A DNA stretch of 64,000 nt from Candidatus Heimdallarchaeota archaeon (GCA_019057375.1 DXJF01000011.1:64001-128000); one strand, 5' to 3'. Shown: positions 1,881 through 31,863, counted from the stretch's first letter. Translations and numbers: made by a program. Notes: generated by a model from the sequence alone, not told the origin.

Positions 1881-3791
1881 TCAACCTTGGAAAAGAAATG
1901 GAGATATAACTTCTGTTCCATACTTTTCCTTGGCTTCCAATAATCTTTGTCGTTGTTGTTCTAACTCATTAAAGAATTCTTCAGGAACATCCTTTTCATT
2001 TTTGAATATTGCATCTATTCTTTCAATTTTCTTTAAGAATTTCTGAATTCTGATAGAGAATTCTGCTACATACCTTTCCTTACCATAATCAAAATCAAAA
2101 GCTTCTTTGAATAAAGCTTTAATATCTTCATATTCTGGAATATGACCTATTGGCGTTTCTATTGCAGAATATTCGCCATGAACTCTCTTTTCTGCCCAAA
2201 GTAACCATATTTTTTTATCAAGAATTTCGTCATAGTATCGTCCCTTTTTATCCTTGAGGAAATAGTTTGTTGAGAATATTTTTGGAACCTTATTTTGTGC
2301 AATTCGTCTTCCAAAACCTAGATGTGCTTCAAGATACTCTCCTAGAGGAACTACTATGAAATCGAGATTAGCCATTGGTTGATGTTTTCTAACACCTGCT
2401 TCCCCTAAAGTTGCAGCTGTTGTTTCAGATTCTACAGAAGCACCAATATAAACACCATGCTCCCAACTGAAAGATTCATAAACTGGAACAGATGTATCGC
2501 TGTCTCTTCCTCCATAAATAATAGCTGAAACCTCTACTCCATTAGGATCATGTAATGCTTCATCAACATTTTCTAACTCCTCTAATCTTATTGTATAACG
2601 AGCATTTGGGTGTGAAAACTTGAATTCCTTTCCTTCCTCATTACAACAGAAACCTGCATGCCATTCACCAAGCTTAGACGAAGTCCAGTTCATTCCAGTA
2701 TCTGGAATAGTTACTTGTTTACCCATACCTAGCCAGTATGATTTTCCTTCTGAAACCAATATATTAGAAAAAATAGTTTCTCTTGGTGTCATTAAGCTGT
2801 TATAGATAACTGGATCATCTTTTGGACTAACATCCTTAATGATTCCAAAAATCCCTCTTTCAATATTGACAGCCCTAACCTCACCACTTTCATAGATTCT
2901 AAGATAAGCAATGTCATCTCCAATAATTGTGTTTCCTGGAACCATTGCTGTGCTTGTTTTTCCACATGCGCTTGGAAAAGCTCCAAGGAAGTAAGTTTTT
3001 CTACTTTTATCTAATGGCCAGATGGCGCTAATGAACATATGTTCAGTTAACCAGTCTTCATGAATTGCTTTGTTTATAGCTAAACGAAGTGCAAGTTTTT
3101 TCAAACCTAAACTGTTTCCAGCATATTGATTGTTAACTGATAGAACTCGATTTTCTTGTAGATCAATGTAAATGCGTCTATTATCAACATTTTTTGTTAC
3201 ATATTTATCTGTTAACTCTCCTGCTGAGTGAATGAAGTAGAAAAAGTCTTCAGAGTCTTCTAATCTTTTAAATTCTTCATAACCTTGTCTATATAGTAAA
3301 TCTTCAGAATGAGCTACGTAAGCTGAATCTGTAATTTGCAAAGCGCAAAGTGAAAATTTTGACTTAGTTGGACCTAGACTGAAGAATCTAATAATAGCAA
3401 TCTTTCCTTCCATTGCTCCGTCCATAATTTCTAAAACTTCTTTTAGTCCTTCGTCACGATCAACTGTATTGATATGTTGACCATATTTTTCCTTCTCTCC
3501 AGCAGGCACTAAAAGTCGTGTATTCTCTTTATCACGAGCTTGATCATAATAACCATCAAAATGTACTGTTTGTCCTTCTAGACCTAATTCTATTTCTTCT
3601 TTATTGTCAATCGCTAATTGACGTACAAAAGCAATATCCTCTAGTGAATCATCTATAACTTTAGCTTTGGTAGGTTTACAGAGAGTAAGATACTCTTCAA
3701 TAACTCTTTCAACTTCAGGGTTTTCTAAAGCTTTAAGCTTTTTCAAATCCTCTTTATCTATCCACTTTTCAAGACTCATTTTACAGTCCAT
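1881..3791 (-). CDS. pckG: GTP-dependent phosphoenolpyruvate carboxykinase
   Basis: FPSACGKTS P-loop, IGDDIAY, HPNARYT, GGRDSDT motifs; 636 aa. Confidence 0.95.
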   Translation of the reverse strand: MDCKMSLEKWIDKEDLKKLKALENPEVERVIEEYLTLCKPTKAKVIDDSLEDIAFVRQLAIDNKEEIELGLEGQTVHFDGYYDQARDKENTRLLVPAGEKEKYGQHINTVDRDEGLKEVLEIMDGAMEGKIAIIRFFSLGPTKSKFSLCALQITDSAYVAHSEDLLYRQGYEEFKRLEDSEDFFYFIHSAGELTDKYVTKNVDNRRIYIDLQENRVLSVNNQYAGNSLGLKKLALRLAINKAIHEDWLTEHMFISAIWPLDKSRKTYFLGAFPSACGKTSTAMVPGNTIIGDDIAYLRIYESGEVRAVNIERGIFGIIKDVSPKDDPVIYNSLMTPRETIFSNILVSEGKSYWLGMGKQVTIPDTGMNWTSSKLGEWHAGFCCNEEGKEFKFSHPNARYTIRLEELENVDEALHDPNGVEVSAIIYGGRDSDTSVPVYESFSWEHGVYIGASVESETTAATLGEAGVRKHQPMANLDFIVVPLGEYLEAHLGFGRRIAQNKVPKIFSTNYFLKDKKGRYYDEILDKKIWLLWAEKRVHGEYSAIETPIGHIPEYEDIKALFKEAFDFDYGKERYVAEFSIRIQKFLKKIERIDAIFKNEKDVPEEFFNELEQQRQRLLEAKEKYGTEVISPFLFQG

Positions 3792-3923: not shown

Positions 3924-4469
3924 TTATTCATCCTCAAATAGTTCTTTGTATAATTTCATCGAATGGCTTATTGTCTTAAATGCTTCTTCTTTTGAATCCC
4001 ATCCAACAACTTCAACCTTTTTTCCATGTTCTAATCCTTTATAGGTTTTGAAGAATTCAGCAATTTCGTTCAGGGTGTGAGGGTATACATCATCTAAACA
4101 ATAGACTCCATGGAAGAAAGGATCCTTGGAAGCAACAGCTAAAATTTTGTCGTCGTGTCCTTTCTCATCTTTCATTCGTATAATACCTATAGGTCGAGAA
4201 GTTAGAACACATCCAGTAAATGTGGGTTCAGAGATTAGTACTAGAATATCTAAAGCATCTCCATCTTCAAAGTATGTTTGTGGTATTAATCCGTAATCAC
4301 CGGGAAAATGAACAGCTGAATGTAACACACGATCTAAATATAGAATACCATCTTTACCTAATTCGTACTTGTTTCTGTTATTCTTAGGATTTTCAATGAT
4401 AGCATATACTTCTTCAGGAGGATTAGGTCCTGTTTCAATTTTATGCCAGAGAGAATCATTCTTCATCAT
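3924..4469 (-). CDS. ppa: family I inorganic pyrophosphatase
   Basis: YGLIPQTYFEDGDALDILV and DDKILAV motifs. Confidence 0.95.
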   Translation of the reverse strand: MMKNDSLWHKIETGPNPPEEVYAIIENPKNNRNKYELGKDGILYLDRVLHSAVHFPGDYGLIPQTYFEDGDALDILVLISEPTFTGCVLTSRPIGIIRMKDEKGHDDKILAVASKDPFFHGVYCLDDVYPHTLNEIAEFFKTYKGLEHGKKVEVVGWDSKEEAFKTISHSMKLYKELFEDE

Positions 4470-4610: not shown

Positions 4611-4685
4611 ATGATGTACAATGAAAAAAATGACCCGGATGAAGGAGACGGAGACATTCTCCCCCCAGCATGGTCTCCAGGTTAA
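4611..4685 (+). CDS. YDP/PPxWxP family peptide, copy A: MMYNEKNDPDEGDGDILPPAWSPG (24 aa)
   Basis: Translated by hand; paralogous to 7 other copies with synonymous changes; conserved upstream cassette. Confidence 0.8.
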   Translation: MMYNEKNDPDEGDGDILPPAWSPG

Positions 4686-4896: not shown

Positions 4897-4971
4897 ATGA
4901 TGTACGAACCAAAATATGATCCTGAAGGCGGAGACGAAGGTATTTTACCACCTATGTGGTTCCCAAACTGA
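4897..4971 (+). CDS. YDP/PPxWxP family peptide, copy B: MMYEPKYDPEGGDEGILPPMWFPN (24 aa)
   Basis: Translated by hand; SD-like GAGTGA and conserved upstream cassette. Confidence 0.85.
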   Translation: MMYEPKYDPEGGDEGILPPMWFPN

Positions 4972-4976
4972 AAAAA

Positions 4977-5074
4977 TTTTAGTTGATGAACCTCTTTCTA
5001 TAGCTAGCTTCAATATTTTTCTTAACAAGAATTTTTATTGTAAACTAAAATTAGCTGACAATAACTCTCCTAGA
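4977..5074. repeat. 98-bp direct-repeat copy of the 23S rRNA 3' trailer (matches 15211-15308)
   Basis: Direct comparison shows 2 mismatches; includes the processing-stem arm ttagctgacaataactctcctaga. Confidence 0.95.
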
Positions 5075-5151
5075 TAAGGTATTTATTTTTGAGATGATTA
5101 ACGGAAAAAGATAAATTTTGTCTTCTGTACTCTCAGTAACCATCTTAGTAT

Positions 5152-5763
5152 TTAATTCACTTGAGAGATTAATTCTTTTCTTTTAAATATTGAAGTATAT
5201 TTATTTTGAATTCGAGAAGTTGGTTTCCAATCTGAATTGTTATTATGTCCCTTAAAACTACGGTATACTATGCGTTTTCTGCCTTTACCATCAATGAAAT
5301 ATCCATTAAACAATACTTTTCCAAATTTCCAGTCAGTTGAATCTTTTGGGATTATAACTGAAACTATTTGAACATTTCCATTATCGGATTTTATCGGAAA
5401 TGCTTTCTCATCCTCATAATCTAGAGGAGGAGAACTCTCATAAGACGGATAGATTGCAATTTGTATCTGTAATTTAACTAAGATACTTATACTCCCAGGA
5501 TTTTTAAAACTAATACGAAGAAAATGTGTAACAATATCTTCAGAATAACGAGATTGTTTAAGCCCACTTTCTACAAGTTTTATCCAAAATATTGCTAATT
5601 TTGGTTCATTGAATCTAGTTTTTCTTCTTGTATAATATAAGCTAATGAATGATGCTACTAATGCACAAATAGATATAATGTCCAAGCTTTCCATTGTTTT
5701 GAGATCCCTATTTAAATTAATAGCATATATGAAATTTACAAATTGATTGAATGAAAGTAACAT
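5152..5763 (-). CDS. hypothetical protein with N-terminal TM helix
   Basis: ORF track; hydrophobic IISICALVASFISLYY; true start possibly later (MESL). Confidence 0.5.
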   Translation of the reverse strand: MLLSFNQFVNFIYAINLNRDLKTMESLDIISICALVASFISLYYTRRKTRFNEPKLAIFWIKLVESGLKQSRYSEDIVTHFLRISFKNPGSISILVKLQIQIAIYPSYESSPPLDYEDEKAFPIKSDNGNVQIVSVIIPKDSTDWKFGKVLFNGYFIDGKGRKRIVYRSFKGHNNNSDWKPTSRIQNKYTSIFKRKELISQVN

Positions 5764-5883
5764 GTTTCAGACAAACAATATATTACTCAAACGTATTTAA
5801 AACCCAAAAAAATTCTACTATAACTAGCTTCAAAATTCACTTAACAACTATTTTTAGTTCACAAAAAATAGTTGTATATTAAC

Positions 5884-7455
5884 TCAGTCATCTAGAGTTA
5901 TAAAATCCGTAAGAAGTTTCTGTTGAGTTGAAAATGTTCCATCTTTAAGTCTCTTAATATCATCTATTATTCTTGAAATTGTTTTTCTGTTTTGATTAGT
6001 AATTTTATGTTTTAATTGTTCAACAAGTTCGTCACTTGAAATTAAAACAAATTTCTTTTCAGAGTTATTCTTTGTTTGTGATTCTACGTACAAGCACCAG
6101 AATTTCACATTTTTGGCATATTGAGGATAAATAACTAAGTCTTTATGTGTTAATGCTAAGGGGGATTTTTTGACTTCTATAATTTCTAATGAACCATCAG
6201 GCTCTTCTATAAGTATTTCGGGTAATATCCAATTTCTTTCTTCAACCTCTGGCGTCTCAATCTTTGGTTGCCACTCCCATTTTTTTCCCTTAAATAGTTG
6301 TTGCGCAATTCTGTGACAAATCCTTTCCCATAGATATCCTATTATCTCTACACCACCCACTAGATTACAAGAAGGACACCCCGATTTGTTATGGACTCTA
6401 TTGTTGATTCTTGCTACCCACACATGTTTAGAATTTTTCGAACATTGCCACCACACTTCTCTGTGAGAACCTCCAATTACTTCTTCTGGTGTCAATCCTT
6501 CATTTTTTGTTGGATGCCACTCTTTTGCTATTTCTGGATAAAGAGTTTGTAGTGAATTAAATGGAGATAATCTTCTATGAGAACATATTGGACAACCTGT
6601 TTTATATGGCCCAGTTCTATGATATACTTTAGAATCCCACACATGTTTAGAATTTTTCGAACATTGCCACCACACTTCTTTATCAGATCCTGCTATTATT
6701 TTTTCAGCTGTAAGTTCTCCATTTAGTGTTGGATGTAGTTCTTTAGCTATTTCAGGAAATTTTGTAGCAAGAGAATTCGTAACTGAGACTTTTTTATTTG
6801 CACAACAAGGACATCCATAACCTCTTCTAGTTCTACTATCAATAACTGCTCTCCAAATATGATCTGGTCCTTTATCACAAATCCAATAAACTCTTCTTCC
6901 TGAACCAGGAGATACTTGATTTGGAAGAATCCCTCTATTCTTATCATAAAACCATTGAGCACCTATTTCTGGGAACAATGCTTCTAAAGATTCTTCTTCT
7001 AAAACTAGTTTTCCTGAACAATATGGACATCCTGATTTATTTATACCGCTTCTATCATTTATTTTAGCAGGCCAGTTATGTTTAGGGTTTTTCAAACATT
7101 GCCACCACACTTTTTCACTAGATTTCATAATTGCGTTTTCAGGAGTAAAATCTCCATTTTTTGTTGGATGCCATTCAGCTGCTACTTCTGGAAAGTTGAT
7201 TGCTAATGAATTTGTAACTGAAACTCTTTTACTAGCACAAAATGGGCATCCTGTAATTTTTTTTACTCCGGTTCTGTTGTTTGGACTAGTTGGCCATTCA
7301 TGGTCTGGTCCTTTCTCGCATTTCCACCAAATTGGTTGTTTGGAACCATAGGAAATATTTTCGGGTTTTAAGTTTCCATTTTTTGTTGGATGCCATTGTT
7401 TAACTAGTTCAGGAAAATCAGCAATAGTTTTAGTTTCAATTTTATTCTTTGACAT
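5884..7455 (-). CDS. tandem Zn-ribbon (treble-clef, DUF4379-like) repeat protein with C-terminal PD-(D/E)xK-like nuclease domain
   Basis: Five WxCxK..H.W......R....GCPxC units; C-terminal PDGSLEIIEVKK. Confidence 0.7.
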   Translation of the reverse strand: MSKNKIETKTIADFPELVKQWHPTKNGNLKPENISYGSKQPIWWKCEKGPDHEWPTSPNNRTGVKKITGCPFCASKRVSVTNSLAINFPEVAAEWHPTKNGDFTPENAIMKSSEKVWWQCLKNPKHNWPAKINDRSGINKSGCPYCSGKLVLEEESLEALFPEIGAQWFYDKNRGILPNQVSPGSGRRVYWICDKGPDHIWRAVIDSRTRRGYGCPCCANKKVSVTNSLATKFPEIAKELHPTLNGELTAEKIIAGSDKEVWWQCSKNSKHVWDSKVYHRTGPYKTGCPICSHRRLSPFNSLQTLYPEIAKEWHPTKNEGLTPEEVIGGSHREVWWQCSKNSKHVWVARINNRVHNKSGCPSCNLVGGVEIIGYLWERICHRIAQQLFKGKKWEWQPKIETPEVEERNWILPEILIEEPDGSLEIIEVKKSPLALTHKDLVIYPQYAKNVKFWCLYVESQTKNNSEKKFVLISSDELVEQLKHKITNQNRKTISRIIDDIKRLKDGTFSTQQKLLTDFITLDD

Positions 7456-7566
7456 CCAACCAGACCTTTCTTCTTCTTATTCCTGTATATCTAGAAGATT
7501 TTGCTTCTTAAAGTTAGTTTCTGATCGAACCAATTTCCATACACATACTATGAAGCTCATCCAAGT

Positions 7567-7635
7567 TTATTATAACTTGAATAGTCTTGACGAGTAGTTA
7601 TCTCGTTCCCCTCGTATGTGGAGAGGGGGAATTTG
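7567..7635 (-). mobile_element. putative IS200/IS605-like right end / omega-RNA 3' part followed by candidate guide
   Basis: Minus strand: hairpins cccctc..gagggg and acgag-ataacta-ctcgt, then TCAA (7590-7587), then gactattcaagttataataa; overlaps the end of the TnpB ORF. Confidence 0.5.
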
Positions 7636-9499
7636 ATTTTAACAATTGCTCACCCTTATCTTTTACATTTTTTGCTGCATTTATGTGAGTATTCACCATT
7701 TTACCACACTTTTTACATTTTGCGATGTCATAAGAACCAATTTTTCTTTCGACTTTTCCTCCACAACCATTATGTTTTGTACTTGTTCCTCTTGGATTAA
7801 CATAAACAAGTTTAACCTTATATCCAAGTATTGAAGACGCTAATAATACTGCTTTTTCAAATATTTCTTGATTATCAGGCATATTGTATATTGCTTTAGC
7901 TAAAGCTCCTCTTTTTCCTCTAGGATCTATTTGAAAGTCTTCGACACAAAGTAGATTACTCTTATTTTTTACAATTTCAGCAGCAATGAAATGAGTTGCA
8001 AAATTTTTAATTTCTTCAAGAATGTTTTTCCTTCTTCTGTAGACTCTGTACAATTCTCCCTTAGTCTTAACATACCCTCTAGTGTCTTTCTTCTTTCCCT
8101 TATTCGTTAAACTATAGCTCAACTGAGGGATAATAACATTTGATAGTTTATTGTATTTTCTAGCTAGAAGCAACAAATTCTTTGATAAGGGCTCTTTGTT
8201 AGAAAGCGCAATCATATGTTCACTAACTCGGTTAATATCTACTCCTATGGATTTTACTTTCTTTGTACTCCCTTTCTTTGACAATTGCTTGAGAAGTTTT
8301 GTACTAAGAAACTTACTGGGAGTTCCTTCTATAATAACAGAAACTCTAACCTTATAGCTAGGTGAACTGTTGCTGCGAATGAGCAATGATCTAATTCGAG
8401 CTCCTTTGTTAAGATATTCTAAGATTTTCTTTGAAAAGATAAGCTTACATGTAATTCTAGGGAATCCTCTAAGAACGAATCCCAACTCGAAATACCCATC
8501 TTTTCTTGCAAGTTCCGTCATAACTTTTGAACTACCAGGTCTGAGAACAACATGTTTTGGACACATAATTAGTTGGATAGGTAATCTTCCTTTCTTTTTC
8601 TTTCTAAATGGTGGATGAACAATTTTAGTTGGGTGAGTTTTCTGAATTATTTCTATAACAGTCTTCTCTAATGTAGAGTAGAGTGCGAAGATCACTATTG
8701 CTCTTAAAGCAGAAAATAGTCTTCTATTTTTCTCACCTATTGATTCAGCAATTCTTTTACTTAAAAATTTCAAGCTTTTCCAACGAGAAGGATGTACAGT
8801 ATTATTCCACGAAGTAAGAAGAGGTGCTACAATATCCGCCTTTAAAGCTAACAAACGTAAGTTTTCTAGAAACACATTTGTTTTTGAATTGATTGGTTTT
8901 GATGTTAGTTCTAGGCATTTGGACTTATTACACTTCTGTATCGCTCTTTCGAATTCTTTCTGTGCTAAAAGTGGAAGCATAGTGTTGAATTTTAATCGTT
9001 GATTGCAAAATTTGTCTATTTGCCTTCTTGTACTGGTTAGTACATTGATTACATATAATCTCTTTACCTTCCATCTGTAGATAAGAATACTTTCAATTCT
9101 AGGACTTCTTCCAAAAATATACCATTCAATTGCTTGCTCTTTCCAATTCGACATTAAATCGAAAAATACTTCAACTTTCCTCTCTAAGGTAACTGTGCCT
9201 TTGGCTGCTAAAAATAAGTAAGTATATGCACTATCAGCAATACTAGGACTCTTCTTTGTGATTCTTTTGATGTTAGTTAAACCCACCATATTCGGCATTT
9301 TGGGTTCATTTCTTGCAATTGATAATGCAGCGTTTATTGCCTTTTTATCATGAATTAAATCTTCTTGTCTGACTTGCAAACCTTTTACTCTTTGGTTAGC
9401 TTCTTTTTCTTGTATTCTACGTTTCTCTCTAGTACCCTCAAACCTAACACCCATTTGATAAGTGCGAGTGACTAATGTTTGCTTTGTTTGAGAGGACAT
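7598..9499 (-). CDS. tnpB: large (633 aa) TnpB/Cas12-like RuvC protein
   Basis: RuvC-I IGVDINR, RuvC-II LCVEDF, VNPRGTS, Zn finger HNGC..CKKC, RuvC-III NTHINAAKNV; N-terminal RTYQMGVRF strand. Confidence 0.85.
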   Translation of the reverse strand: MSSQTKQTLVTRTYQMGVRFEGTREKRRIQEKEANQRVKGLQVRQEDLIHDKKAINAALSIARNEPKMPNMVGLTNIKRITKKSPSIADSAYTYLFLAAKGTVTLERKVEVFFDLMSNWKEQAIEWYIFGRSPRIESILIYRWKVKRLYVINVLTSTRRQIDKFCNQRLKFNTMLPLLAQKEFERAIQKCNKSKCLELTSKPINSKTNVFLENLRLLALKADIVAPLLTSWNNTVHPSRWKSLKFLSKRIAESIGEKNRRLFSALRAIVIFALYSTLEKTVIEIIQKTHPTKIVHPPFRKKKKGRLPIQLIMCPKHVVLRPGSSKVMTELARKDGYFELGFVLRGFPRITCKLIFSKKILEYLNKGARIRSLLIRSNSSPSYKVRVSVIIEGTPSKFLSTKLLKQLSKKGSTKKVKSIGVDINRVSEHMIALSNKEPLSKNLLLLARKYNKLSNVIIPQLSYSLTNKGKKKDTRGYVKTKGELYRVYRRRKNILEEIKNFATHFIAAEIVKNKSNLLCVEDFQIDPRGKRGALAKAIYNMPDNQEIFEKAVLLASSILGYKVKLVYVNPRGTSTKHNGCGGKVERKIGSYDIAKCKKCGKMVNTHINAAKNVKDKGEQLLKSNSPSPHTRGTR

Positions 9500-9633
9500 A
9501 GTGTAACTGTTAATATTATATGTACTTTCATTTATAAACTGAGAAAAAAAGATGATTCTTCTTGAATTATTATTGTATTACTTCTGTACCATTTATTTTT
9601 GTTTTTTTACTCTTAATAAACAGTACATATGTT

Positions 9634-12093
9634 CTATGATAATTTTAACCAGAATTCAAAATCATCTAAAACTTTGATGTGTTTGTCTCCTACGATTACA
9701 TCTGCAAGAATTTCCAAAGGAATTTCCTCGTTATGTCCTTGGCTTTTAGCTTGAATTATATTCAGAGTGAAATCCCAATCATATGACCTTTTATTATCTA
9801 ATAACAGTTTCTTGATCTCCTTTAAACCTTTTATTCTAATCTCATCGTCATTTTCATGAGCATAAAGATAGAAGTAGTACTCTAATTCAATCGATTCTTT
9901 AAATCTTGATTTTTCTATGTACTTCATAGCTTTATCTAGGTATTCAAACCCTTCTTCCCTTCCTTGAGAAAGAAGTAAAGATGCATAATTAATCAAGTTA
10001 TTTGCATTTTCAGAATCTATCTCATTTGCTTTGTTAAAATACTTCTCAGACATTTCAAGATTCTTGAAATCATGATACATTAGCACTGCAAGTTGTCCCC
10101 AAATCTCTGCATTCTTAGGTTCAATTTTTATTGCTTTCTTCAAATGGGATTCAGCCTTTTTATAATCATTATAAATCTTAGACACGAAATATGAATAATT
10201 ATAATGACCAAATGCATTGTTTGAATCTAACTCAAGTGCCTTCTTATACATCTTTTCTGATTCTGAATAGCGTTTCACTCTTTTCTGCAGGAATATAGCA
10301 TAATAAACATAGTACGTAGAATTTTCTGGAGATTTCTCAATTGCCTCTTTTAGGTATCTCTCCGCTTTTTTATAATCTCCTAATTTCTCTGAATAAAAAT
10401 ATCCTATATCTAGAATATATTCAGCATTTTCAGGATTCAAAACTAGTGCTTGATTATAATATGAATTAGCTTTTTTGATATCCTCTCTTGAATAAGCTAG
10501 AAACCTTGCATAATTTAAAACTCCACGTGAATAATTAGGATTTGTATCAATTGTTTTTTCAAAATACTCCTCCGCTAGATTATAGTTTTTCCGAATTTTT
10601 TCTTGAAATAAAGCATAACCTTCTAAAATTGTTGGCATATTAGGAGATATTTCTAAGGCTCGTTTGTAATACTCTTCAGCCTTTTTATAGTTTTCATCAT
10701 CCTTGACAATTTCCCATAAAAAGCCTGCGTAATTACTTAGGTTTGCAGAACTGTGTGGGTTCAATTCCAATGCTAATTTGTAGAATTCTTCTGCTAATGT
10801 GTGATTCCCCACTATTCTATGCAGGAAACTTGCATAATTTACTACTAAAGCTGGAAATTTTGGGGCAACAGATAGTGCTCTTTTGTATATTTTCTTTGCC
10901 TTTTCGATGTTTAATGTAGACTGTAGGAAGAAAGCATAATTAGTTAAAAGATTGATATTATTTCCAAAGATTTTCAGACCACTTTCATAAATGTCAATGG
11001 CTTTATCAGGATTCTTCCATTTCCATTCGGCAGCCTTCAACTCAACGTATTTCCAAGCTAGTAATTCTTCGCTTAGTTCAGATAAAGCAAACGAAAAAGC
11101 TACTGAAAATTTCTTTTGTTCCTTCGGATTTTTTTGTTCAATATCTTTTGGTATCTCTCCTAATCGTTCATAAAATTGATTAATAAGTCCTTCAATTCTT
11201 TCTTTGTCTGGAAGTTTCAAAGAAAATTCCTTTAGAATCAATAGCATTAGTTCATCAAAATCTCTATGCTGTATCCATACACCATCCCTATCTTTAATCC
11301 AATTACCTAGTTTGGTGTTTGGAAACTCATTTCCTATCCAATAAACTCCCCATGGAAGAGCGCTTTCGGGGAGTTTTGAAAGAATTTCGGCTATGCTCCC
11401 GTCATTTCCACCATATCCCATGAATATAAGTCCTGTATCAGAAAGAACCTTTTGAATAGCTACTTTAGTGTTTTTTGCAAGAGTCTTAGTTTCAATTTCT
11501 GTATTTTTTGGCTCAAGTCTAGCATCACCATGAAGTTTAATGACTAAAGGTTTCACCCTCGAAGATCTTACAAAACCTGCTAAAGTGTCATGCACAATTA
11601 CAAGTGGTTTTTTATTTGTGTATAGATATAATGCATCTGCAATTAAATCATCAAAATTGACAGTCAAAGCTACATTACAATGCTTTCCATATTTTTCATC
11701 TGACATTAAACAAGAAAGGACACCATAACCAAATCCTGGATCTTTTTTATCAATTATGTTCTCAATTTCCTTTTGCCTTTCTTCAGGTTTATGAAATAAT
11801 AATTGAATTATTTTACCATAAAATAAAGCTGCTTGAGAGTCATCATAATTTGGGAGAATCTCTTTGATATTTTGAAGAGAATAATCTGCATCTTTTCCTT
11901 TTCTCTGCCTAATTAATCGAAAGAGCCATCTTTTTGCGAGTTCTCCTGCTGTTGGAATACCTGAAGAAACAGAACACCCCGCTCCAAGAAAGAACACATA
12001 TTTGCATTCTTCATAATTATCCATATTGTATTTGATTTTTCTTATGAATTCTTCAATATCCATCTTTTTTATTTCTATATTTGCTCCTTCCAT
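9634..12093 (-). CDS. SIR2-domain + TPR-repeat protein (probable defence NADase)
   Basis: FLGAGCSVSSGIPT, TVNFDDLI, KLHGD, FMGYGGND; about 10 TPR-like repeats (..YKKALELDSNNA..). Confidence 0.85.
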   Translation of the reverse strand: MEGANIEIKKMDIEEFIRKIKYNMDNYEECKYVFFLGAGCSVSSGIPTAGELAKRWLFRLIRQRKGKDADYSLQNIKEILPNYDDSQAALFYGKIIQLLFHKPEERQKEIENIIDKKDPGFGYGVLSCLMSDEKYGKHCNVALTVNFDDLIADALYLYTNKKPLVIVHDTLAGFVRSSRVKPLVIKLHGDARLEPKNTEIETKTLAKNTKVAIQKVLSDTGLIFMGYGGNDGSIAEILSKLPESALPWGVYWIGNEFPNTKLGNWIKDRDGVWIQHRDFDELMLLILKEFSLKLPDKERIEGLINQFYERLGEIPKDIEQKNPKEQKKFSVAFSFALSELSEELLAWKYVELKAAEWKWKNPDKAIDIYESGLKIFGNNINLLTNYAFFLQSTLNIEKAKKIYKRALSVAPKFPALVVNYASFLHRIVGNHTLAEEFYKLALELNPHSSANLSNYAGFLWEIVKDDENYKKAEEYYKRALEISPNMPTILEGYALFQEKIRKNYNLAEEYFEKTIDTNPNYSRGVLNYARFLAYSREDIKKANSYYNQALVLNPENAEYILDIGYFYSEKLGDYKKAERYLKEAIEKSPENSTYYVYYAIFLQKRVKRYSESEKMYKKALELDSNNAFGHYNYSYFVSKIYNDYKKAESHLKKAIKIEPKNAEIWGQLAVLMYHDFKNLEMSEKYFNKANEIDSENANNLINYASLLLSQGREEGFEYLDKAMKYIEKSRFKESIELEYYFYLYAHENDDEIRIKGLKEIKKLLLDNKRSYDWDFTLNIIQAKSQGHNEEIPLEILADVIVGDKHIKVLDDFEFWLKLS

Positions 12094-12140
12094 TAATAAC
12101 AGATATTAATTTTCAGCTATATAAATCTGTGATAATACTA

Positions 12141-14858
12141 TTAGAGATGTTTTATTGAATCTTCATTTATTTCTCTTTTACATTTGGGACAAATAGTTTT
12201 AACTTTCATCCATTCTTGAAGATGATTGTTATGAAACGTATGACCACAATCTATTATGTAGACTAAATTTTCTTCTGCTACCATGTAATTCAAACATATT
12301 TCACACTTTCTTGTTTTCTTTCCACAGTTTAAACAAATAAGTGGTCCTCCATCCTTTACTCTTTCAAGCAAAGCATCGCAGAAGTAACAGAATAACTTTT
12401 CATCTTGCTTCTTAATATTGCCAACAGTGCTTTTCTCTTCAGTGATTTTTACCTCTTTCTTAGGATTTTCTTGTAGTCTACTCTGTTTAATTTTTCTGAG
12501 TACTACTCCTTGATTTGTGAAAAACTCTGCAAGTGAAGGTTTGCTCTGTTCCTTTTTCTGCTTTCCAAATCTCATATATCCTATAAACAATATGAAAAAT
12601 AATCCAGAAACAATAACTGACCACGGAAATAGCTTTCCAGAATTATTCTTCTTCAGATAGCTGAATAACAACCATCCAGATATAAAGAAAACATATTTTG
12701 CATATCTGAAAAGGAACTTGTTTTTACTATGAAGATCTTTGTAGAAGGTATTTGTAGAAGAGTTGACTACTACTGAAAACCAAAAGAAAGTAGAAGCAAA
12801 TAGTATGGTTGTAAAAACATTGAACGAGATTTTACCCAAGATAACAAATTCAAACCCAGTATTATCACTGTTAGCTATTGAAACTAATCTCCCAAGAATC
12901 AGAAAGAATCCCACGTTCTTCAGGATTACAAAAACAGCTGCTAATCCCAGTAATACTTTTCTCATGTTACCTAAAATACTGAAATTGAAGAAACGCTCTG
13001 TTTTAATATATCCTCCATTGAATTGAAGTTCGTATTCTTCATCATCAAGTTTTACTTTAGCATTCCTGTTTGTTTCTTTGTTTTTCTTTTCTAAATGTCT
13101 TACTAAAACAATTAATGCTATTGCATCTAGAATGAGACTAATGCTCATTAGAGTTGGTAATGAAGGTTTGAAAGGTTTTGAGTCACTGCTTGGGTTAGGA
13201 AGTTCAAAGGGGTTCGTCGGTGTGACAACTTCTTCAGAAGTAGCTGCGAGTCTGTAGCTAAGCTCCCCTATTGTAACCGATAAACCTTCACCATAGATTG
13301 ATAATATTATTTCTATTTCTTGATAACCTTGGTTAATTTCTATGATTACTCTATCATTGATCGTTTGTTTATCATTGAATGATTGAAAGAAAACCTGATT
13401 ATCGTTTATCTTAATTCGCAGATTGAATTGATCAACAGAAGAGTAAAATTCGTTGTATAAATTCAAGGAGAAAGAAAGATTGAAGGTAGTTGAAGAAGAA
13501 TCAAAATAGAAAACATCTGTGAATTTAACTGTTAAAGGTCCTGTAATTGATGTTTCATAAGTTTTTGAGGAGACCATCGTTTTTTCTAGAGTGCTATTTT
13601 CATCAAGTATAGGAACGGGCTCTATTTCAATAGTACTGGTATTGAGTAGGTAAAAAATACCCTCTCCTGTTGCTATTCCATAAACCCGAAAAGCAATATT
13701 AGAGGAGTAATTTACAGTGTAGGTATCAATAATACTTTCAGGATAGCTGAAATGAATAGCCCCTGAATAGATGACATCGGAATCCGAAAGAATTTCATAA
13801 TTTAAAATAGGTAAGATTGCTGAACCTATATAATCATAATATAACGAAATGAACAAATTCTGTTCACTAATGCTAGAAAAAGGTTTTAGTGATGATAAAT
13901 CAAAGGAATGGTCTACTGAAGGGCCATCGCAGGAAAACCAATCAAAAGATTCTTCTGGAATTTCGTCTTCGAGAAGTTGGAGTTCTCCAAACAAAGCTAT
14001 ATTAGTAAACCATATCTCATCTACACCTAGGTTAACACAGAAATAGAAACGGATTATGTTCGTCCCCTGCTCTAACGGAATAGAAAAAGAGACAATAACA
14101 AAAGGAACTTTAGAAAAACTTGTAGTAGCGATGATTGTGTTATTTATTTCTACTTCTAAATATCGAGAAAGGGCACTAAAGGAATTTGTATTAAAAGAAA
14201 GAGTTACGTTTAAAGTGGTGGAACCATTGATTGAATAAACTGCTGTTTCAACATAATCACTTCTGACACCTGAAAGATCTCCATAATAGCCTATTTGACC
14301 AGGATTACAAGGAAGGGAGGTTAAATTCTTATCAAGAACAGGAATTGTAATTGGTTCTATTGTTGATGAACTTAATATTTGAATAGCGCCAGAATTAAGG
14401 ATATTCGAAGTTTTACCTTCACATGAAATAACAATAATCATTGAACCGATGAAGTTTTGAGGATAAGAAAATGATTTAGAAATAGAGTGTTCATTAGAAT
14501 CCTGATAAATACGGTTAATGTTAATTTCTACTTCAGTAGTGTCCAAATACAAAATAATCGTTAATCCATTTGAGTCAGTCCTATCACCAGAAAAGAGAAA
14601 AAATATAGTTAAACTATTATATTCTTGAAGTTCAAGATTGACTAGTTCAAAAGTAAAATTTTGTTTTACAGAAGTTGAGTCATAAGAATACAGTATATTT
14701 TCATCTATTATAGTAGAGCTATAAATAGAAGGGGGATTAGGAACGTTATTTTGATTTCTTGCAATAGCTAAAGAACTAGTAAAACAAAAGAGTGTTAACA
14801 CTAATAACATGTTTCTAGTTGTGTTTTTCATTATCAGTTTTATAATCCGAAAATTCAT
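12141..14858 (-). CDS. membrane protein: signal peptide, ~550 aa ectodomain, TM bundle, Zn ribbon and C-terminal RING-H2-like domain
   Basis: CEIC...CGHTFHNNH...W...CPKC at C-terminus; FCYFC..CLNC; hydrophobic segments. Confidence 0.8.
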   Translation of the reverse strand: MNFRIIKLIMKNTTRNMLLVLTLFCFTSSLAIARNQNNVPNPPSIYSSTIIDENILYSYDSTSVKQNFTFELVNLELQEYNSLTIFFLFSGDRTDSNGLTIILYLDTTEVEININRIYQDSNEHSISKSFSYPQNFIGSMIIVISCEGKTSNILNSGAIQILSSSTIEPITIPVLDKNLTSLPCNPGQIGYYGDLSGVRSDYVETAVYSINGSTTLNVTLSFNTNSFSALSRYLEVEINNTIIATTSFSKVPFVIVSFSIPLEQGTNIIRFYFCVNLGVDEIWFTNIALFGELQLLEDEIPEESFDWFSCDGPSVDHSFDLSSLKPFSSISEQNLFISLYYDYIGSAILPILNYEILSDSDVIYSGAIHFSYPESIIDTYTVNYSSNIAFRVYGIATGEGIFYLLNTSTIEIEPVPILDENSTLEKTMVSSKTYETSITGPLTVKFTDVFYFDSSSTTFNLSFSLNLYNEFYSSVDQFNLRIKINDNQVFFQSFNDKQTINDRVIIEINQGYQEIEIILSIYGEGLSVTIGELSYRLAATSEEVVTPTNPFELPNPSSDSKPFKPSLPTLMSISLILDAIALIVLVRHLEKKNKETNRNAKVKLDDEEYELQFNGGYIKTERFFNFSILGNMRKVLLGLAAVFVILKNVGFFLILGRLVSIANSDNTGFEFVILGKISFNVFTTILFASTFFWFSVVVNSSTNTFYKDLHSKNKFLFRYAKYVFFISGWLLFSYLKKNNSGKLFPWSVIVSGLFFILFIGYMRFGKQKKEQSKPSLAEFFTNQGVVLRKIKQSRLQENPKKEVKITEEKSTVGNIKKQDEKLFCYFCDALLERVKDGGPLICLNCGKKTRKCEICLNYMVAEENLVYIIDCGHTFHNNHLQEWMKVKTICPKCKREINEDSIKHL

Positions 14859-14941
14859 TTATAAACTGAGTAAAACCATATTTACTATATCTGAATCTTG
14901 TTGGGTTTAAATAGATATTTTGCATTTCATTATTGAGATAG

Positions 14942-15112
14942 ATGTTCGTAATTACATTCCTTAAGTCTTTAAGATCAAAGAAAAAAGGGGGACCTATTCT
15001 AGAAGAGATTCTACTTATTGGTATAGCAGTTCTTGTCTTTGCAATAATCTTTGCACTAATTTTTAGCTTAATAGATTGGTCTACATCTCCTTTTGAAGAA
15101 CTTTTCAAGTGA
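14942..15112 (+). CDS. short class III signal peptide (Flp/type IV pilin-like) protein, 56 aa, not in ORF track
   Basis: MFVITFLKSLRSKKKG|GPILEEILLIGIAVLVFAIIFALIFSLIDWSTSPFEELFK: basic leader, G cleavage site, E at +5, long hydrophobic helix. Confidence 0.75.
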   Translation: MFVITFLKSLRSKKKGGPILEEILLIGIAVLVFAIIFALIFSLIDWSTSPFEELFK

Positions 15113-15210
15113 AGAGTTTTTTCTTTCAATTTCAAGAAACTTAGACTTTTAGTGGGTTTATAAGGGGAATTACTATATTTTCTTTGAAGCTAGCAATACG
15201 CAAGATAACA

Positions 15211-15308
15211 TTTTAGTCGATGAACCTCTTTCTATAGCTAGCTTCAATATTTTTCTTAACAAGAATTTTTATTGTAAACCAAAATTAGCTGACAATAACT
15301 CTCCTAGA
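15211..15308. repeat. native 23S 3' trailer including processing-stem 3' arm (15285-15309); duplicated at 4977-5074
   Basis: 15285-15309 is a perfect 25-bp inverted repeat of 18935-18959. Confidence 0.9.
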
Positions 15309-15671
15309 ATCTGACGAACCAATTTCCATTTTTCCTAACTACGCTTGAGCAATTAGTGATTGTGGGCTAAACATCTCGCCGAAGCTCGACGCGTACACCC
15401 CAATTCTATCAACCGGATCTTCTTTCCGCGCTCTCATCTATATCGAAGGTTACTGTCACCAGTCCCCTTATAGTGATACAGAGTGGGTGACTCGTTTCGA
15501 GAGTAGCTTCGAGCGTTGATGCATTCCGCTCTTATCTACGAGGGCTTAGCTACCCGGCGATACCCTTTAGGATAACCGGTACACCAGAGGCCCCAGCCGC
15601 CTGTTCCTCTCGTACTGTGGAGACTTTACTCTCAATCACCCGCCAGCACCATCAGATAGAATCCAACCTGT

Positions 15672-15826
15672 TTTGCGTGAATTTAAGCCCGAGTATTGAT
15701 CTTCGATAGAAGGGATTTCCCGTAAGGGGGGTTTACAACTATCAAAGACTTTTACATACTTGGATGAAGTTCAATTGAAGTATTACTACTATACTTCTAC
15801 AGAACTCCACTATAGCTTAAATCCAT
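15672..15826 (-). other. 155-nt BHB-type intron in 23S, near E. coli position 2599/2600
   Basis: Interrupts GUGAG|ACAGG; terminal stem uggauuuaagcu/ggcuuaaauuca, bulges AGA and AAA around helix UGUG/CGCA; cleavage after the 2nd bulge nt restores the exon. Confidence 0.85.
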
Positions 15827-15975
15827 CTCACAACGGTCTAAACCCAGCTCACGTTCCCTTTTAATGGGCGAACAACCCCACTCTTGGCGGCTGAATCACC
15901 ACCAAGCTAGGAAGAGCCGACATCGAGGTAGCAAGCCGTGAGGTCGATGTGAACTCTTACCCACGACAACTCCGT

Positions 15976-16364
15976 TCAGGGCTGCGCTTGCGCTATGCGC
16001 ACATCGGCTTTAAGGATCAGTTGTCACCTGGTATAACGACATAGGCAGTTACATAATCCTTAACCTTATCTTCATGTCCTCACGCTTATTTTTGGCTCTC
16101 CATCTTTCGTGTTTATTTAGGGATTTATCTATTCTAAATGGATTTGTGACAGAAATTAGATTCACTCTGCTCAAGTTTTGTAGCCTTTTAATGGCGAAAA
16201 CTTTCGTTTCCTCACGTGGAAGAAAGACTGAAGCTATAATTAAATTCACTCAATTTTACTTTTCTGCCTCGGAAAAGATGGACTTTATCAATAAGCGTTA
16301 CAGACAGAGAGCACTCTTTGTGATAAACAATCACTTCTTCGTGATAAACACTCAGAAGCGCAGT
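15976..16364 (-). other. 389-nt BHB-type intron in 23S, near E. coli position 2450/2451
   Basis: Interrupts GGGGUA|ACGG; stem cugcgcuu/aagcgcag, bulge UAA, helix GGGG/CCCU, bulge GAA. Confidence 0.85.
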
Positions 16365-18934
16365 TACCCCTGGAGTAACTTTTCTGCCACCTCCGCCGCC
16401 TACTAATGGCACTGCGAAGGATCGCTAGGCCCTGCGTTAACATCTGCGAACTGTATTGGTGAGTTCACAGTCAACCGAGCTTTTGCCCTTGCACTCTTCA
16501 CCGGATTTCTGTCCCGGTTGAGCTCGGCTTTGGGCCCTCTTGATATCTTTTCAAGAGGCTACCGCCCCAGTGAAACTGCCAGGCAGGGGGTGTCCCCCTC
16601 GCAAGAGGTAAGTCGTACCAATGCGCAAGGTCAGTATTTCAAGTTCGACTCCCCTACATCCCGGAGAATGTAGGATCAGCATCTCCTGACTATGCTATGC
16701 ATGCACACCAATACAACAGCCCCTGACAGCAGTAAAGCTTCACAGGGTCTTCTCTTCCCGATGGTGCGCTCCAGACTGTTCGCTGGACTGTGGGTTCAGT
16801 AGGCTTCGGGTGGAGACAGTGGGCACCTCGTTGGTCCCTTCATGGACGTCTGTAATTAGCAGACAAGGCATTTGCCTACCTTAAGAAGCTCATAGTTAGC
16901 TCCGGCGTTTACTGGGTCTTAGCCTGGTTGAACCCAGGTTTCAATCACCAGCACCGGCCAGGATTCACTAACTGTACTAAGGCTTTCGCCCTTGCAGTTA
17001 GCTATGTTTTTATTAAACAGTCGGGTGCCCCTAGTCACTGCGACCTGGTAAGGCATACACCTTCCCAGGCATCCCTTATACCCAAGGTACGGGACTAATT
17101 TGCCGATTTCCTTCACCCGAGCTCCCCTAACACGCTTTAGCCTTCTAAGCTAGCCACACCTGTGTCGGTTCTGGGTACGGTCACGCGTAATCGTTCTCTT
17201 TGCTTTTTCATGGGCTGTTGGGGTTGATGGCAGCCAGCAACCTATGGCCGGCCTCTTCATCTATTCTTCTGGTTCTCACCTTAACGGTTCTTCCCAGAAT
17301 TCTATAATTTAACTAGGATATGCTCCTAGGCCACCTACCCACCAGCGTTAGCTCAGAGCTTGCGTCGCCGCGTCTATACGCGTGGTACAGGAATATGAAC
17401 CTGTTTCCCTTTCGAACGACTCGTTTTAAGATCGTCCTTAGGACCGACTAACCCTTGGCTGACGAACAGTGCCAAGGAACCCTTGGGCTTTCAGCGATGA
17501 GGATTCTCACCTCACTATGCTCCTACTACCACCGAGATCTGCAAATCTAATCGGTCCACTGGGAATCACTCCCCAGCTTCTGCCCAACCAGATCGCCCCC
17601 CTACCTGAGACTCTTGCGGAGTCCAAATGGGTATCGGGACCCGGTTTAGCCCCGTCCATTTTCTGAGCCCAACAACTCGATGAGTAAGCTGTTACGCTTT
17701 TTTTAACGGATAGCTGCCTCTAAGCTTACCGCCTCATTGTCTTAGTCGTTGGACGTCATTCTGTTTAACATTTAACCGGGATTTAGGGCCCTTAACCCAT
17801 TGTAGGGTTGTTCCCCTTTCGGCCATATCCCTTGCGGATACGCGCCCGTCTGTCGCCTTCTACAGCGCTTGCAAGTTCGGAGTTGGAAGGGAGGGTGAGG
17901 ATTTCACTCCCCAGAACCTCCCGTCCGTAGCTCTACCTCACAAGCCGCCTTCAGCGACGCTATCCTGTGGTGATACTTCGGGGGGAACCAGCTATCAGCA
18001 GTTTAGATTGGTCTTTTGCCACTATCCCCAACTCAGAGGAATGAATTGCATATCAATAACCCTTCAGGCCTCCACGCTCCTTTCGAAGCGCTTCACCTTG
18101 GTCAGGGATAGATCAACTGCTTTCGGGTCTTACACCTGTGACTTCACGCCCTTATCGGACGTCGCGCCTTGCCGAAGCTGCGCGCTGGTCGCTTTCGCTA
18201 CGCCACCGTATTAACTTAGGCTTGCCACAGACATAAACTCCTCGGCCCGTGTTTCAAGACGGAACGGATAACTCTGGTCCTCTCAGCTCGTACTACCACC
18301 TCACGATGGGTTCCTTCACCGAGACTCTACCCTTTCAAGCCATCCACGTCTGTTACCATGTAGTTTCAGGGACTTTTCACTCTCGTATTTCGAATACTTT
18401 TCAACTTTCACTCACGTTACTAGTGCGCTATCGGTCTAGGGGAGTATTTAGGCTTGGGAGTTAGTCCTCCCATATTTGCGCGACAAATCCAAGCCACGCT
18501 AGTCTTGATACTACTAAGCCGAGCGCTTACGTTTACGGGGTTATTACCCTCTATGACGCCCCTTTCCAGGGGCCTTCAACTTCACGCTTTCGGTCTATGT
18601 TGTAGTCAAAACACCACATCTACCTTAATTTTTCAAAAAAGGAATTCGGTTTGGCCTGTTCCGGTTTTACTCGCCGTTACTACCGGAATCACAATTGTTT
18701 TCTTTTCCTGCAGGTACTTGAATGTTTTGGTTCCCTGCGTTCCCCGCCATTACTGGCTGTTACAGTTTATTAGACTGTAACCGGAAATCCGATTCGGGAA
18801 TCTGTGGATCGTAGACTGTCTGCGTCTTCCCACAGCGTTTCGCCGCTTACCGCGCCCTTCATCGGCTCCCTAGCCGAGTCATCCACTACATGGCGTATGC
18901 ATAGTGTAGGTTACTCTAGAAATCAGTTTTCGCC

Positions 18935-18959
18935 TTCTAGGAGAGTTATTGTCAGCTAA
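18935..18959 (-). promoter_or_regulatory. 23S processing-stem 5' arm with BHB-like junction
   Basis: Perfect complement of 15285-15309, continuing inward as ggcg/cguc with bulges. Confidence 0.85.
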
Positions 18960-20855: not shown

Positions 20856-21035
20856 GTTCATCTCAGGAAAGGTTATCATTTTAGTTAGACAAAGCTATTA
20901 AAGCACCCCAAAGAAAAGACTGACAGTTACAGCTATTTCTGATTGGAAGAGTTGGCTAATAGATAATTGGCTTGATGAGTTTGAAAGATTAAAACCTTAT
21001 TTTCTTAATTCAGAGCAATTATGACAACTAAAAAA

Positions 21036-21093
21036 CTCCAAGGAATACAAGAACCCCGAGAGAAAGATTCTACAGAAGTAGAGAAATAAGGGG
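21036..21093. repeat. copy of 16S 3' trailer / processing-stem arm (distal copy)
   Basis: ctccaaggaatacaagaaccccgagagaaagattctacagaagtagagaaataagggg, similar to 24680-24736 and 30208-30267. Confidence 0.9.
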
Positions 21094-21185
21094 TGAAAGA
21101 ACGAGTTTTATTAAATAGAAATTGTAAAAGTTGTTTCAAATGTTGTGCTTAGAAACAATTTTGAAGATTATATAAAATATCAAGG

Positions 21186-24323: not shown

Positions 24324-24679
24324 ACAAATATCATCTTTTTTGTTTATTTCAATAAAGTTTGAAATTAAATATCGAATTCAACTTAATCTATATGTTATTT
24401 TTTACAAAGCTACTTAAATGCTTTTTTTTCTATTGGTAAAGATGAAAAATTAATATTTATAGATAAATGGAAACCTTTTGAAGATTTTGAGAGAAATATG
24501 AATAAGTTGTTAGAAACTCTAGAAGTATTAATTTAAGATATCATATTGAGAGAAATATAAGTAAAACCTGAATAAGTTAATTATATAGATATATGGATGA
24601 ATGCTAATTTGTTGGAAGAATTTACTTCAATTAAACATTATTTTTACTAAAATAAATTTCAAACTATGAAGAATAAATA

Positions 24680-24786
24680 CCCCCAAATAATACAAGAACC
24701 CCGAGAATAAGATTCTACAGAAGTAGAGAATAAAGGGTTGGGGTTGGGAAGTCTTGAAAACTTCCGAACGTAGGAGGTGATCCATC
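24680..24786. repeat. copy of the last ~15 nt of 16S plus 3' trailer (att-like)
   Basis: 24767-24786 aacgtaggaggtgatccatc is identical to 30348-30367; the stem arm is also present. Confidence 0.9.
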
Positions 24787-24832
24787 AGCTTTGAATTAAA
24801 AATTCCTTGGGGTTTAACAATGCAAGTTTATA

Positions 24833-30181: not shown

Positions 30182-30207
30182 TATTCAATTTGGGTGAAAT
30201 AAAAAAG

Positions 30208-30265
30208 CCCCCAAAGAATACAAGAACCCCGAGAGAATGACACTACAGAAATAGAGAATATAAGG
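30208..30265 (-). promoter_or_regulatory. 16S processing-stem 3' arm (proximal trailer)
   Basis: Imperfect inverted repeat of 31965-32026. Confidence 0.8.

Positions 30266-30352: not shown

Positions 30353-31863
<1,511 letters not shown>

Follow-up and report, generated by a model that had tools for sequence, protein, structure and literature searches.

Genomic islands normally lie at tRNA genes, where their presence is explained by integrases, and type V-K CRISPR-associated transposons use a TnpB-derived protein with a fixed guide to home to such genes. In the Heimdall group, the elements HeimM2 and HeimV2 of Candidatus Heimdallarchaeum occupy a site flanked by the 16S gene and tRNA-Arg, and integration by a homologue of homing endonucleases was proposed for them (Wu et al. 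2022, PMC8813620). Here, we analysed a window of 64,000 nucleotides (nt) from a Heimdallarchaeota metagenome-assembled genome (MAG; Candidatus Heimdallarchaeota archaeon, GCA_019057375.1, DXJF01000011.1:64001-128000), which consists of 159 contigs, comprises 3.47 Mb and is 89% complete. This genome is called G000, the window corresponds to G000:C12:64001-128000, and coordinates are those of the window unless a contig is named. The subject is a stretch of about 10 kb (4977-15308) behind the 23S rRNA gene, which is bounded by copies of the 23S 3' trailer and contains a TnpB-family gene. According to the best overall explanation, which taken as a whole still falls a little short of probable, this stretch is a composite accessory-gene island in a recombination hot spot.

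The locus shares several features with the IS200/IS605 and IS607 insertion sequences (ISDra2, ISFba1), namely the fold and motifs of TnpB, a structured RNA with a conserved block that overlaps the 3' end of the gene, about 20 nt following this RNA that correspond to the DNA beside the insertion site, and an arrangement with TnpB at one end and a hairpin at the other. In contrast to these elements, it spans 7.7 kb with three or four passenger genes, has no accompanying TnpA of either type, carries a histidine in RuvC-III and encodes a protein about 200 amino acids (aa) longer. While IS200/IS605 elements produce no target duplication, repeats of 105-126 nt (about 30 nt at tRNA-Cys) are present here, and the serine TnpA with a MerR-like N-terminus known from IS607 does not stand beside tnpB. 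RuvC-III-rearranged TnpB branches likewise have a conserved histidine in place of the RuvC-III Asp and retain their remaining catalytic residues (PMC10691335); the largest of these was reported without a zinc finger, whereas the family studied here keeps it (PMC10691335).

Likewise, the locus resembles integrative elements that target tRNA 3' ends (pNOB8 and SSV types, bacterial genomic islands) in its direct repeats derived from a stable RNA, the rebuilt RNA element, the empty sites in relatives and the tandem accretion. However, the element contains no integrase, no tyrosine recombinase was found in the genome, and the target is the 3' strand of an rRNA processing stem. Unlike type V-K systems, it has neither TnsB, TnsC and TniQ nor a CRISPR array, and its insertion would need host recombination. 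HeimM2 and HeimV2 are similar as Heimdall-group mobile DNA exactly beside the sole rRNA gene of its kind, but here the 23S trailer is the site, the processing arm is duplicated and TnpB is involved. A limited literature search yielded no paper on a 23S-trailer island that duplicates the processing arm, or on a TnpB guide slot with rRNA-trailer sequence. The finding combines two known kinds of element, the TnpB element and the stable-RNA-targeted island.

The initial annotation, which was made from the sequence alone, described a 98-bp direct repeat, and this was reproduced: among the 98 positions of 4977-5074 and 15211-15308, only two are mismatched, with T against C at 4984/15218 and at 5046/15280. 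A gapped alignment extends the repeat to 4970-5074 and 15204-15308 with 96% identity over 105 nt, and a genome-wide blastn search placed it at only two positions in the 3.47 Mb. The right copy (T_R, 15204-15308, minus strand) begins 25 nt downstream of the 23S 3' end and is made up of the 3' strand of the processing stem and about 30 further nt, followed by a segment of about 42-50 nt (seg42, 15204-15253) that doubles as the tip of the mobile block's hairpin end. The left, distal copy (T_L, 4970-5074, minus strand) abuts the stop codon of a mini-peptide gene.

The 23S-side ends of both copies are fully complementary to the leader (5') strand of the 23S processing stem (18935-18959, minus strand), with 25/25 pairs for 15285-15309 and 24/24 for 5051-5074. 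The remaining 23S-proximal trailer (F_R, 15310-15332, minus strand) runs from the mature 3' end to the outer stem and contains a 3-nt bulge that resembles a bulge-helix-bulge (BHB) motif. Cofolding of leader and trailer predicts a 25-bp outer helix, a 3-nt trailer bulge (15310-15312), a 5-bp helix and a 2-nt leader bulge, a geometry near but not identical to the canonical 3-nt bulge, 4-bp helix and 3-nt bulge. The repeat starts 1-2 nt from this predicted bulge, in line with the earlier statement that homology ends close to it. In addition, a 12-nt stretch running from the end of the 23S gene into the proximal trailer has a second copy, identical at 11 of 12 nt, at the distal trailer end just before the hairpin end (15296-15345 versus 15240-15270), which may be chance or a shared target motif.

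Comparison with the genus supports the idea that the enclosed DNA was inserted. The genes for inorganic pyrophosphatase (PPase) and phosphoenolpyruvate carboxykinase (PEPCK) follow the 23S 3' end in at least 11 genus genomes with a gap of 60 nt to 2 kb, and a TGT-like gene beyond them was matched in 6 of these. Among the five closest species, PEPCK identity is about 95%. At the empty site of G013, the mini-peptide gene, one 105-nt trailer and the 23S gene follow each other, and G018 and G011 show the same order with a trailer that lacks the distal ~42 nt, i.e. the hairpin tip. In G024, the trailer is followed by a homologue of 15203-14890 and then by mini-peptide genes, and this right junction (trailer, hairpin and pilin-like gene) matches G000 at 89-98% identity. 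Other species of the genus have a 530-aa gene at the same site, while the full 10 kb behind 23S occurs in G000 only among the genus genomes compared. Since the 23S trailer of sister MAGs joins the mini-peptide, pyrophosphatase and PEPCK genes directly, the 10-kb stretch is almost certainly a real insertion, as was supposed at the outset, and the changing contents across the genus agree with the earlier view of the trailer as an integration site and mark it as a place of recurrent insertion.

The repeat copies also differ by context. At the one informative site in the hairpin tip, C is present in every block-linked context and T only in solo copies, namely the left copy of G000 and the single trailer of G013, both of which carry the hairpin tip only. 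The second polymorphism is private to the right copy and does not help to map a crossover. Judged from these sequences, the state of G013 is the product expected from recombination between the two repeats of G000, whereas the trailers of G018 and G011, which have no tip, resemble sites where the block was never present or from which the tip was lost. A single-gene tree did not resolve the branching among the six closest species and hence gives no order for gain and loss.

The island itself is layered. Its core block of about 7.7 kb (7542-15253) is composed, in order, of a hairpin end, a pilin-like gene, a gene for a RING membrane protein, a SIR2-TPR gene, the TnpB-family gene and an omega-RNA-like scaffold. 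The hairpin end (15186-15245) has 9-nt inverted arms (15186-15194 and 15237-15245), and similarity among six aligned genomic contexts stops just beyond its outer arm. Beyond the scaffold side lie cassette B (5897-7519, minus strand), which consists of a promoter region and a DUF4379 protein gene, a third and degenerate trailer copy (T_M, 5818-5896, minus strand, about 76% identical to 15232-15308), and cassette C (5075-5817, minus strand) with the gene for a protein termed p203. T_M starts on the same nucleotide as T_R and T_L and retains approximately the first 20 nt of the hairpin end. The junctions 7519/7520, 5896/5897 and 5074/5075 all correspond to the same trailer nucleotide, and a near-palindromic hexamer opens each trailer copy. 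The degenerate copy at 5818-5896 and a separated 21-nt trailer piece at 7520-7540 imply that the island comprises at least three nested pieces. The initial picture of a cargo island did not include this nesting, nor that TnpB terminates a 7.7-kb block instead of being mere cargo.

The separated trailer piece occupies the position of a guide. This segment (F_L, 7520-7540, minus strand) lies directly 3' of the scaffold, starts 1 nt after its conserved end and copies the 23S-proximal trailer 15310-15329, with 20/21 positions matching 15329-15310 and one 1-nt insertion. The 15-mer 7526-7540 is identical to 15315-15329 and is present nowhere else in the window, compared with 0.01 occurrences expected by chance. 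The end of F_L at 7520 corresponds to the last base of the BHB-like bulge; in terms of the trailer, the adjoining base is the one at which the left repeat begins. F_L and the left repeat therefore join into a full proximal trailer, indicating an original duplication of about 126 nt; on this alignment, the duplication was later split by the two further cassettes, those of the DUF4379 protein and p203.

In the tRNA-linked copies, the guide slot is occupied by sequence similar to the D-arm half of tRNA-Cys or, in the case of G016, of a different tRNA. Compared with the adjacent 300 nt, this likeness reaches significance for G011, G016 and G006, while G004 is a borderline case (15/500 shuffles), and the slot of G005 matches a G000-type tRNA-Cys at 19/20 positions by eye.

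The protein encoded at the inner end of the block (7598-9499, minus strand, 633 aa) had been called TnpB-like, and its family identity is now backed by domain models, motifs and the predicted fold. NCBIfam guided_TnpB aligns to residues 136-614, below the model cut-off. The AlphaFold2 model has a mean pLDDT of 84, and its top Foldseek hits are Cas12f, ISFba1 TnpB and ISDra2 TnpB, with E-values down to 8e-9. RuvC-I Asp421 and RuvC-II Glu520 are invariant in 17 aligned family members, while the RuvC-III Asp position is taken by His605, and histidine is found there in all 24 copies inspected, which departs from the canonical Asp-Glu-Asp triad. Between RuvC-II and RuvC-III, the invariant residues His576, Cys579, Cys595 and Cys598 form a zinc finger (Pfam Cas12f1-like_TNB, E 9e-8). 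TnpB branches with a conserved RuvC-III Asp-to-His change were judged probably active (Altae-Tran et al. 2023, PMC10691335), and some of the RuvC-III-rearranged branches are nearly exclusive to archaea (PMC10691335).

The end of this open reading frame (ORF) overlaps the omega-RNA-like scaffold (7542-7630, minus strand), which was delimited in an alignment of 14 family members. Two hairpins are predicted for the ORF end together with about 60 nt beyond it, and 7/11 predicted pairs show compensatory double changes. A conserved 14-nt block (7542-7555) follows the hairpins in all 14 aligned copies, beyond which the sequences diverge. The family is represented by about 10 copies per genus genome and by ten full-length genes in G000, seven of which belong to a 2.09-kb unit with 72-84% identity. 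A search for related loci with the TnpB protein gave no match.

The search with island DNA revealed a second home of the core block. Window 7653-15254 is found at 73% identity in G010:C45, and the part from the RING gene to the hairpin at 84-94% DNA identity in G011:C4 and three contigs of G018. In G010, G011 and G021, a tRNA-Cys(GCA) gene is situated 75-90 nt past the TnpB stop codon, and alignment of the 3' flanks showed the same arrangement in G014, G004 and G005. In G011 and G018, the hairpin and 24 nt adjoin a ~30-nt fragment from the 3' end of tRNA-Cys, beyond which the chromosomal flank begins. In G011:C4, a full tRNA-Cys and its ~30-nt 3' fragment thus enclose the hairpin tip and the genes for TnpB, the RING protein and the pilin-like protein. 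The corresponding tRNA-Cys(GCA) of G000 (G000:C12:18731-18804) is empty, being colinear with the G011:C4 flanks at 92-93% identity but without the 5.3 kb. The site is also empty in G013. It is occupied by a block of 5.3 kb in G011 and of 7.8 kb in G010, while G018 has a tandem array there and G009 and G006 have different inserts, each about 1 kb long.

On this comparison, the 3' end of tRNA-Cys(GCA) is a second insertion hot spot. Because the block lies at the 23S trailer here and at tRNA-Cys in sister species, it has likely moved between these two RNA-gene flanks at least once. The tRNA-Cys position is the more widespread one, which does not fix the direction of the move.

The absence of an integrase from the island, noted at the beginning, was confirmed by Pfam, NCBIfam and PADLOC, as no recombinase domain was detected in any island protein. 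No Y1 transposase (PF01797) was found in any of the 25 genus genomes, G000 included, although the control genomes respond. Phage_integrase (PF00589) has no match in G000, G011, G013 and G009; over the genus, matches are present in 13 of 25 genomes and missing in G000 and 11 others, and all 14 control genomes respond. The PF00589 model would include a Xer-type enzyme, and G000 is without any match. The genome encodes one Cas1 and four small stand-alone serine recombinases, the latter on contigs without any of the ten TnpB genes; the two of them that were scanned gave weak matches to IS607/XisF models and lack the IS607 N-terminal part.

The initial annotation had proposed either a trans-acting recombinase or homologous recombination. 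A tyrosine integrase finds no support, given the missing match in G000 and three of its five closest sisters, whereas homologous recombination is viable and a trans-acting serine recombinase has four stand-alone candidates in G000. Metagenome contigs were scanned as well. No match to the junction of scaffold end and 23S trailer was obtained, and the hairpin end was found on 5 contigs, including one G010-like block and one 23S end with trailer at a contig end. None of these 5 contigs was a circle.

Combined, these data can be cast into a working model. It is rather probable that the repeats were made by homologous recombination, in which a trailer copy on incoming DNA would recombine with the resident trailer and thereby bring the block in. 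This might occur by Campbell-type integration of a circle or by unequal crossing-over between block copies at two nearby sites, for instance with a homologous chromosome that has the block in a neighbouring place, and either route would leave an intact processing stem beside the 23S gene and displace the old trailer copy by 10 kb. As repeats of 105-126 nt are far longer than a recombinase core, homologous exchange appears simplest. Recombination between the repeats would delete the island again and leave a single trailer with a hairpin tip, as in G013.

A TnpB cut as the trigger of insertion is possible, if doubtful. TnpB and Cas12f cut at the guide-distal end, as known for ISDra2 TnpB. Here, TnpB and its guide would recognise or cut the trailer where the match to the guide ends on its far side, which is the edge of the BHB-like bulge. 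Such a cut would explain why three junctions fall on one nucleotide and why the DUF4379 and p203 cassettes later landed there, and the trailer piece in the guide slot would fit it as well. Extended to all sites, TnpB would cut the flank of an RNA gene, and host homologous recombination would copy the element in, with the RNA-processing element being rebuilt at every insertion. On this view, the rRNA trailer would serve as a safe harbour addressed by RNA, where repeated cutting left the cassettes as scars at one nucleotide. In this full form, an Asgard TnpB whose guide derives from a stable-RNA gene (the BHB arm of the 23S processing stem here, tRNA-Cys elsewhere) would bring about the insertion of defence-type cargo without a transposase, as well as its retention, and the model is then unlikely.

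Several observations weigh against the working model. The TnpB protein shares only 55-60% identity with its counterparts in sister species, as opposed to a DNA identity of 84-94% in the RING part, which marks the block as a mosaic that may not move as one piece. The TnpB paralogues of G000 are 72-84% identical and thus do not point to recent transposition. Owing to the 1-nt insertion, the guide segment is not an exact copy of the resident target, and in most tRNA-linked copies the guide-like segment matches its own neighbouring tRNA only weakly. No common motif precedes the putative targets (23S trailer, tRNA-Cys and other tRNAs) on the 5' side; the 5' flanks of the hairpin end are A-rich without a single shared motif, and despite these A-rich similarities no TAM-like motif (target-adjacent motif) spans the tRNA and rRNA targets. 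Furthermore, recombination is deduced from assembled sequences and no event was observed directly, and the coincidence of breakpoint and BHB-like bulge could have another cause.

Most of the data could also be explained by a passive hot spot, where homologous recombination is anchored in the conserved 23S gene and trailer, TnpB is a resident and its slot merely a carried-along flank. DNA would enter by uptake from related species or by unequal exchange, each event pushing the old trailer downstream, which agrees with trailer copies of different ages (98% and 76% identity), a mosaic block and a site that contains nothing, a 530-aa gene or an island across the genus. The six closest species, at about 95% identity, are near enough to recombine, a similar triplication lies behind the 16S gene, the TnpB paralogues are old, and searches found no Y1 transposase in the genus genomes and no tyrosine integrase in G000. 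However, illegitimate distal joins would be expected at random, yet three junctions share one nucleotide, and the position of the guide, 1 nt past the conserved scaffold end, is precisely where a trailer piece is found. The tRNA-like slot of tRNA-linked copies and the move of the block between tRNA-Cys and 23S trailer, which have no homology in common, are also left unexplained, so that a purely passive origin seems rather unlikely. The same sharp and repeated breakpoint at a near-palindromic hexamer would suit site-specific integration by a recombinase encoded elsewhere, with the trailer as attB and the shared breakpoint as crossover. The tRNA-Cys element between a full tRNA and a displaced 3' fragment gives the classic picture of such events, and enzymes exist in the form of the four stand-alone serine recombinases of G000 and the tyrosine recombinases of 13/25 genus genomes. 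This explanation is nevertheless improbable, since all of these enzymes are encoded away from the island and the TnpB copies, tyrosine recombinase matches are missing in G000, G011, G013 and G009, the 105-126-nt repeats greatly exceed a recombinase core, and two metagenome scans found no attP-bearing circle.

The position of three junctions 1-2 nt from the 3-nt bulge of the BHB-like motif would also be compatible with an origin at the RNA level, whereby pre-rRNA is cleaved at the BHB by the splicing endonuclease, ligated to other BHB-cut RNAs and reverse transcribed. This is barely credible, as the island encodes no reverse transcriptase, the cassettes have promoters and an opposite-strand gene, and the junctions are 1-2 nt off the expected cut. 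The duplications behind 16S begin 9 nt from a putative BHB intron site and not at the site, and hence give no support for a BHB start. Finally, the 105-nt repeat might have led the assembler to thread a separate element, for example a circle with one copy of the trailer, into the chromosome, given that the MAG has 159 contigs, junction 5074/5075 is seen in this assembly only and several sister assemblies break contigs inside the 23S gene. Such an artefact is very improbable, because the repeat copies differ at 2 positions that are each tied to their own flanks, and independent assemblies contain the right junction (G024) and the junction of trailer and mini-peptide gene (G013). Moreover, the degenerate third copy and the separated 21-nt piece record a history that no mis-join would create.

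The cargo of the island was assigned gene by gene. A 56-aa small membrane protein ORF (14942-15112, plus strand) is conserved in G024 and has a pilin-like N-terminus, for which the Pilin_N match is weak (E 0.003, below the cut-off), so that the label "pilin" given earlier stands only in this limited sense. It was preferred over a 106-aa minus-strand ORF at the same position, which is probably spurious. The adjacent 905-aa RING protein (12141-14858, minus strand; Pfam zf-RING_2) has a signal-like N-terminus, one hydrophobic segment near residue 570 and a C-terminal RING-H2 domain according to hydropathy and Pfam; from these features it is a single-pass membrane protein, and the RING receptor of the initial annotation is retained as a membrane protein with a C-terminal RING-H2. 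The 819-aa SIR2-TPR protein (9634-12093, minus strand) likewise kept its assignment, with SIR2_2 and TPR matches in Pfam, and its SIR2 domain resembles the defence-type partners of short prokaryotic Argonautes (PADLOC Aga_SIR2, E 2e-35).

In the outer cassettes, the supposed Zn-ribbon nuclease is a 523-aa protein with five DUF4379 treble-clef zinc fingers by Pfam (ORF 5884-7455, minus strand); the zinc-binding part of that prediction holds, while no nuclease domain was detected. Its homologue in G001 lies in an ordinary context with neither trailer nor tRNA. The 203-aa p203 (ORF 5152-5763, minus strand) has no Pfam, NCBIfam or PADLOC match and only distant paralogues within the genus. Judged by these domains, the cargo looks defence- or signalling-related. 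In several genomes, a homologue of the pilin-like gene is located directly upstream of a TnpB gene in the same direction (G005:C49:61823-63108, G002:C82:980-3316, G008:C95:33627-35882, G012:C110 and G022:C229). This pairing recalls published flagellin-linked TnpB derivatives.

Further features were noticed in the wider TnpB family. Many copies of one subfamily, in G000 (for example G000:C21:9169-9915, C92:2212-2958 and C65:39854-40600) and in other genomes, have exactly one in-frame TAG (TGA or TAA in some) in the part that aligns with the C-terminal 250 aa, and their open frame still reaches about 650 aa; this codon could be the true stop with similarity continuing into the RNA scaffold, or be read through. 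In two copies of the 2.09-kb subfamily (G000:C145, ~90650-92750, and C65, ~40600-40700), the DNA after the 3' block is the antisense of the 5' part of a tRNA, and one of them has a complete tRNA gene just beyond its other end. By their flanking sequences, other family members may also be addressed to tRNA genes.

According to Rfam, the window contains one 23S and one 16S rRNA gene, both on the minus strand and 11.4 kb apart. The 23S gene (15333-18910), the sole copy found, matches the full LSU_rRNA_archaea model with 2462 bits. With 3578 nt compared to 2987 model positions, it has about 590 extra nt, which are either expansion segments or an intron; a 110-aa ORF (16074-16406) lies on the strand opposite to the gene. 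The GC content is about 31% outside the rRNA genes, without a step at the island borders. On the left chromosomal flank lie the genes for PEPCK (1881-3791, minus strand) and PPase (3924-4469, minus strand), both assigned by Pfam, and the 24-aa mini-peptide gene (4897-4971, plus strand), which is also present at empty sites. The latter belongs to a family of acidic 24-aa mini-ORFs with a common upstream block (4611-4685 and 4897-4971, and near 20866-20917, 62796-62943 and 63274-63379), of which many copies occur across the genus, often close to rRNA genes.

For the 16S gene (30353-31863, minus strand), three copies of its 3' end and trailer are present (20939-21095, 24587-24789 and 30111-30370) with 71-84% identity. 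These copies flank an nSTAND NTPase gene (21186-24323) and a 1647-aa ORF (25238-30181), and the second one contains approximately the last 20 nt of mature 16S. Similar 70-nt elements with up to 5 repeats occur on contigs of G004 and G001.

In contrast to islands at tRNA genes with their integrases, the island described here lies in an rRNA 3' trailer, duplicates a strand of the processing stem, has neither integrase nor transposase, and carries that very trailer in its TnpB guide slot. If TnpB is active, the archaea most closely related to eukaryotes would provide a natural case in which cargo enters a safe harbour in an RNA-guided and recombination-dependent manner, and the TnpB block would be re-addressable from a tRNA gene to an rRNA flank. 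Even if TnpB is passive, the finding shows rRNA flanks to be hot spots of gene flux in Heimdall-group archaea, which helps to account for the lack of linkage between their 16S and 23S genes and for the accessory genes around both.

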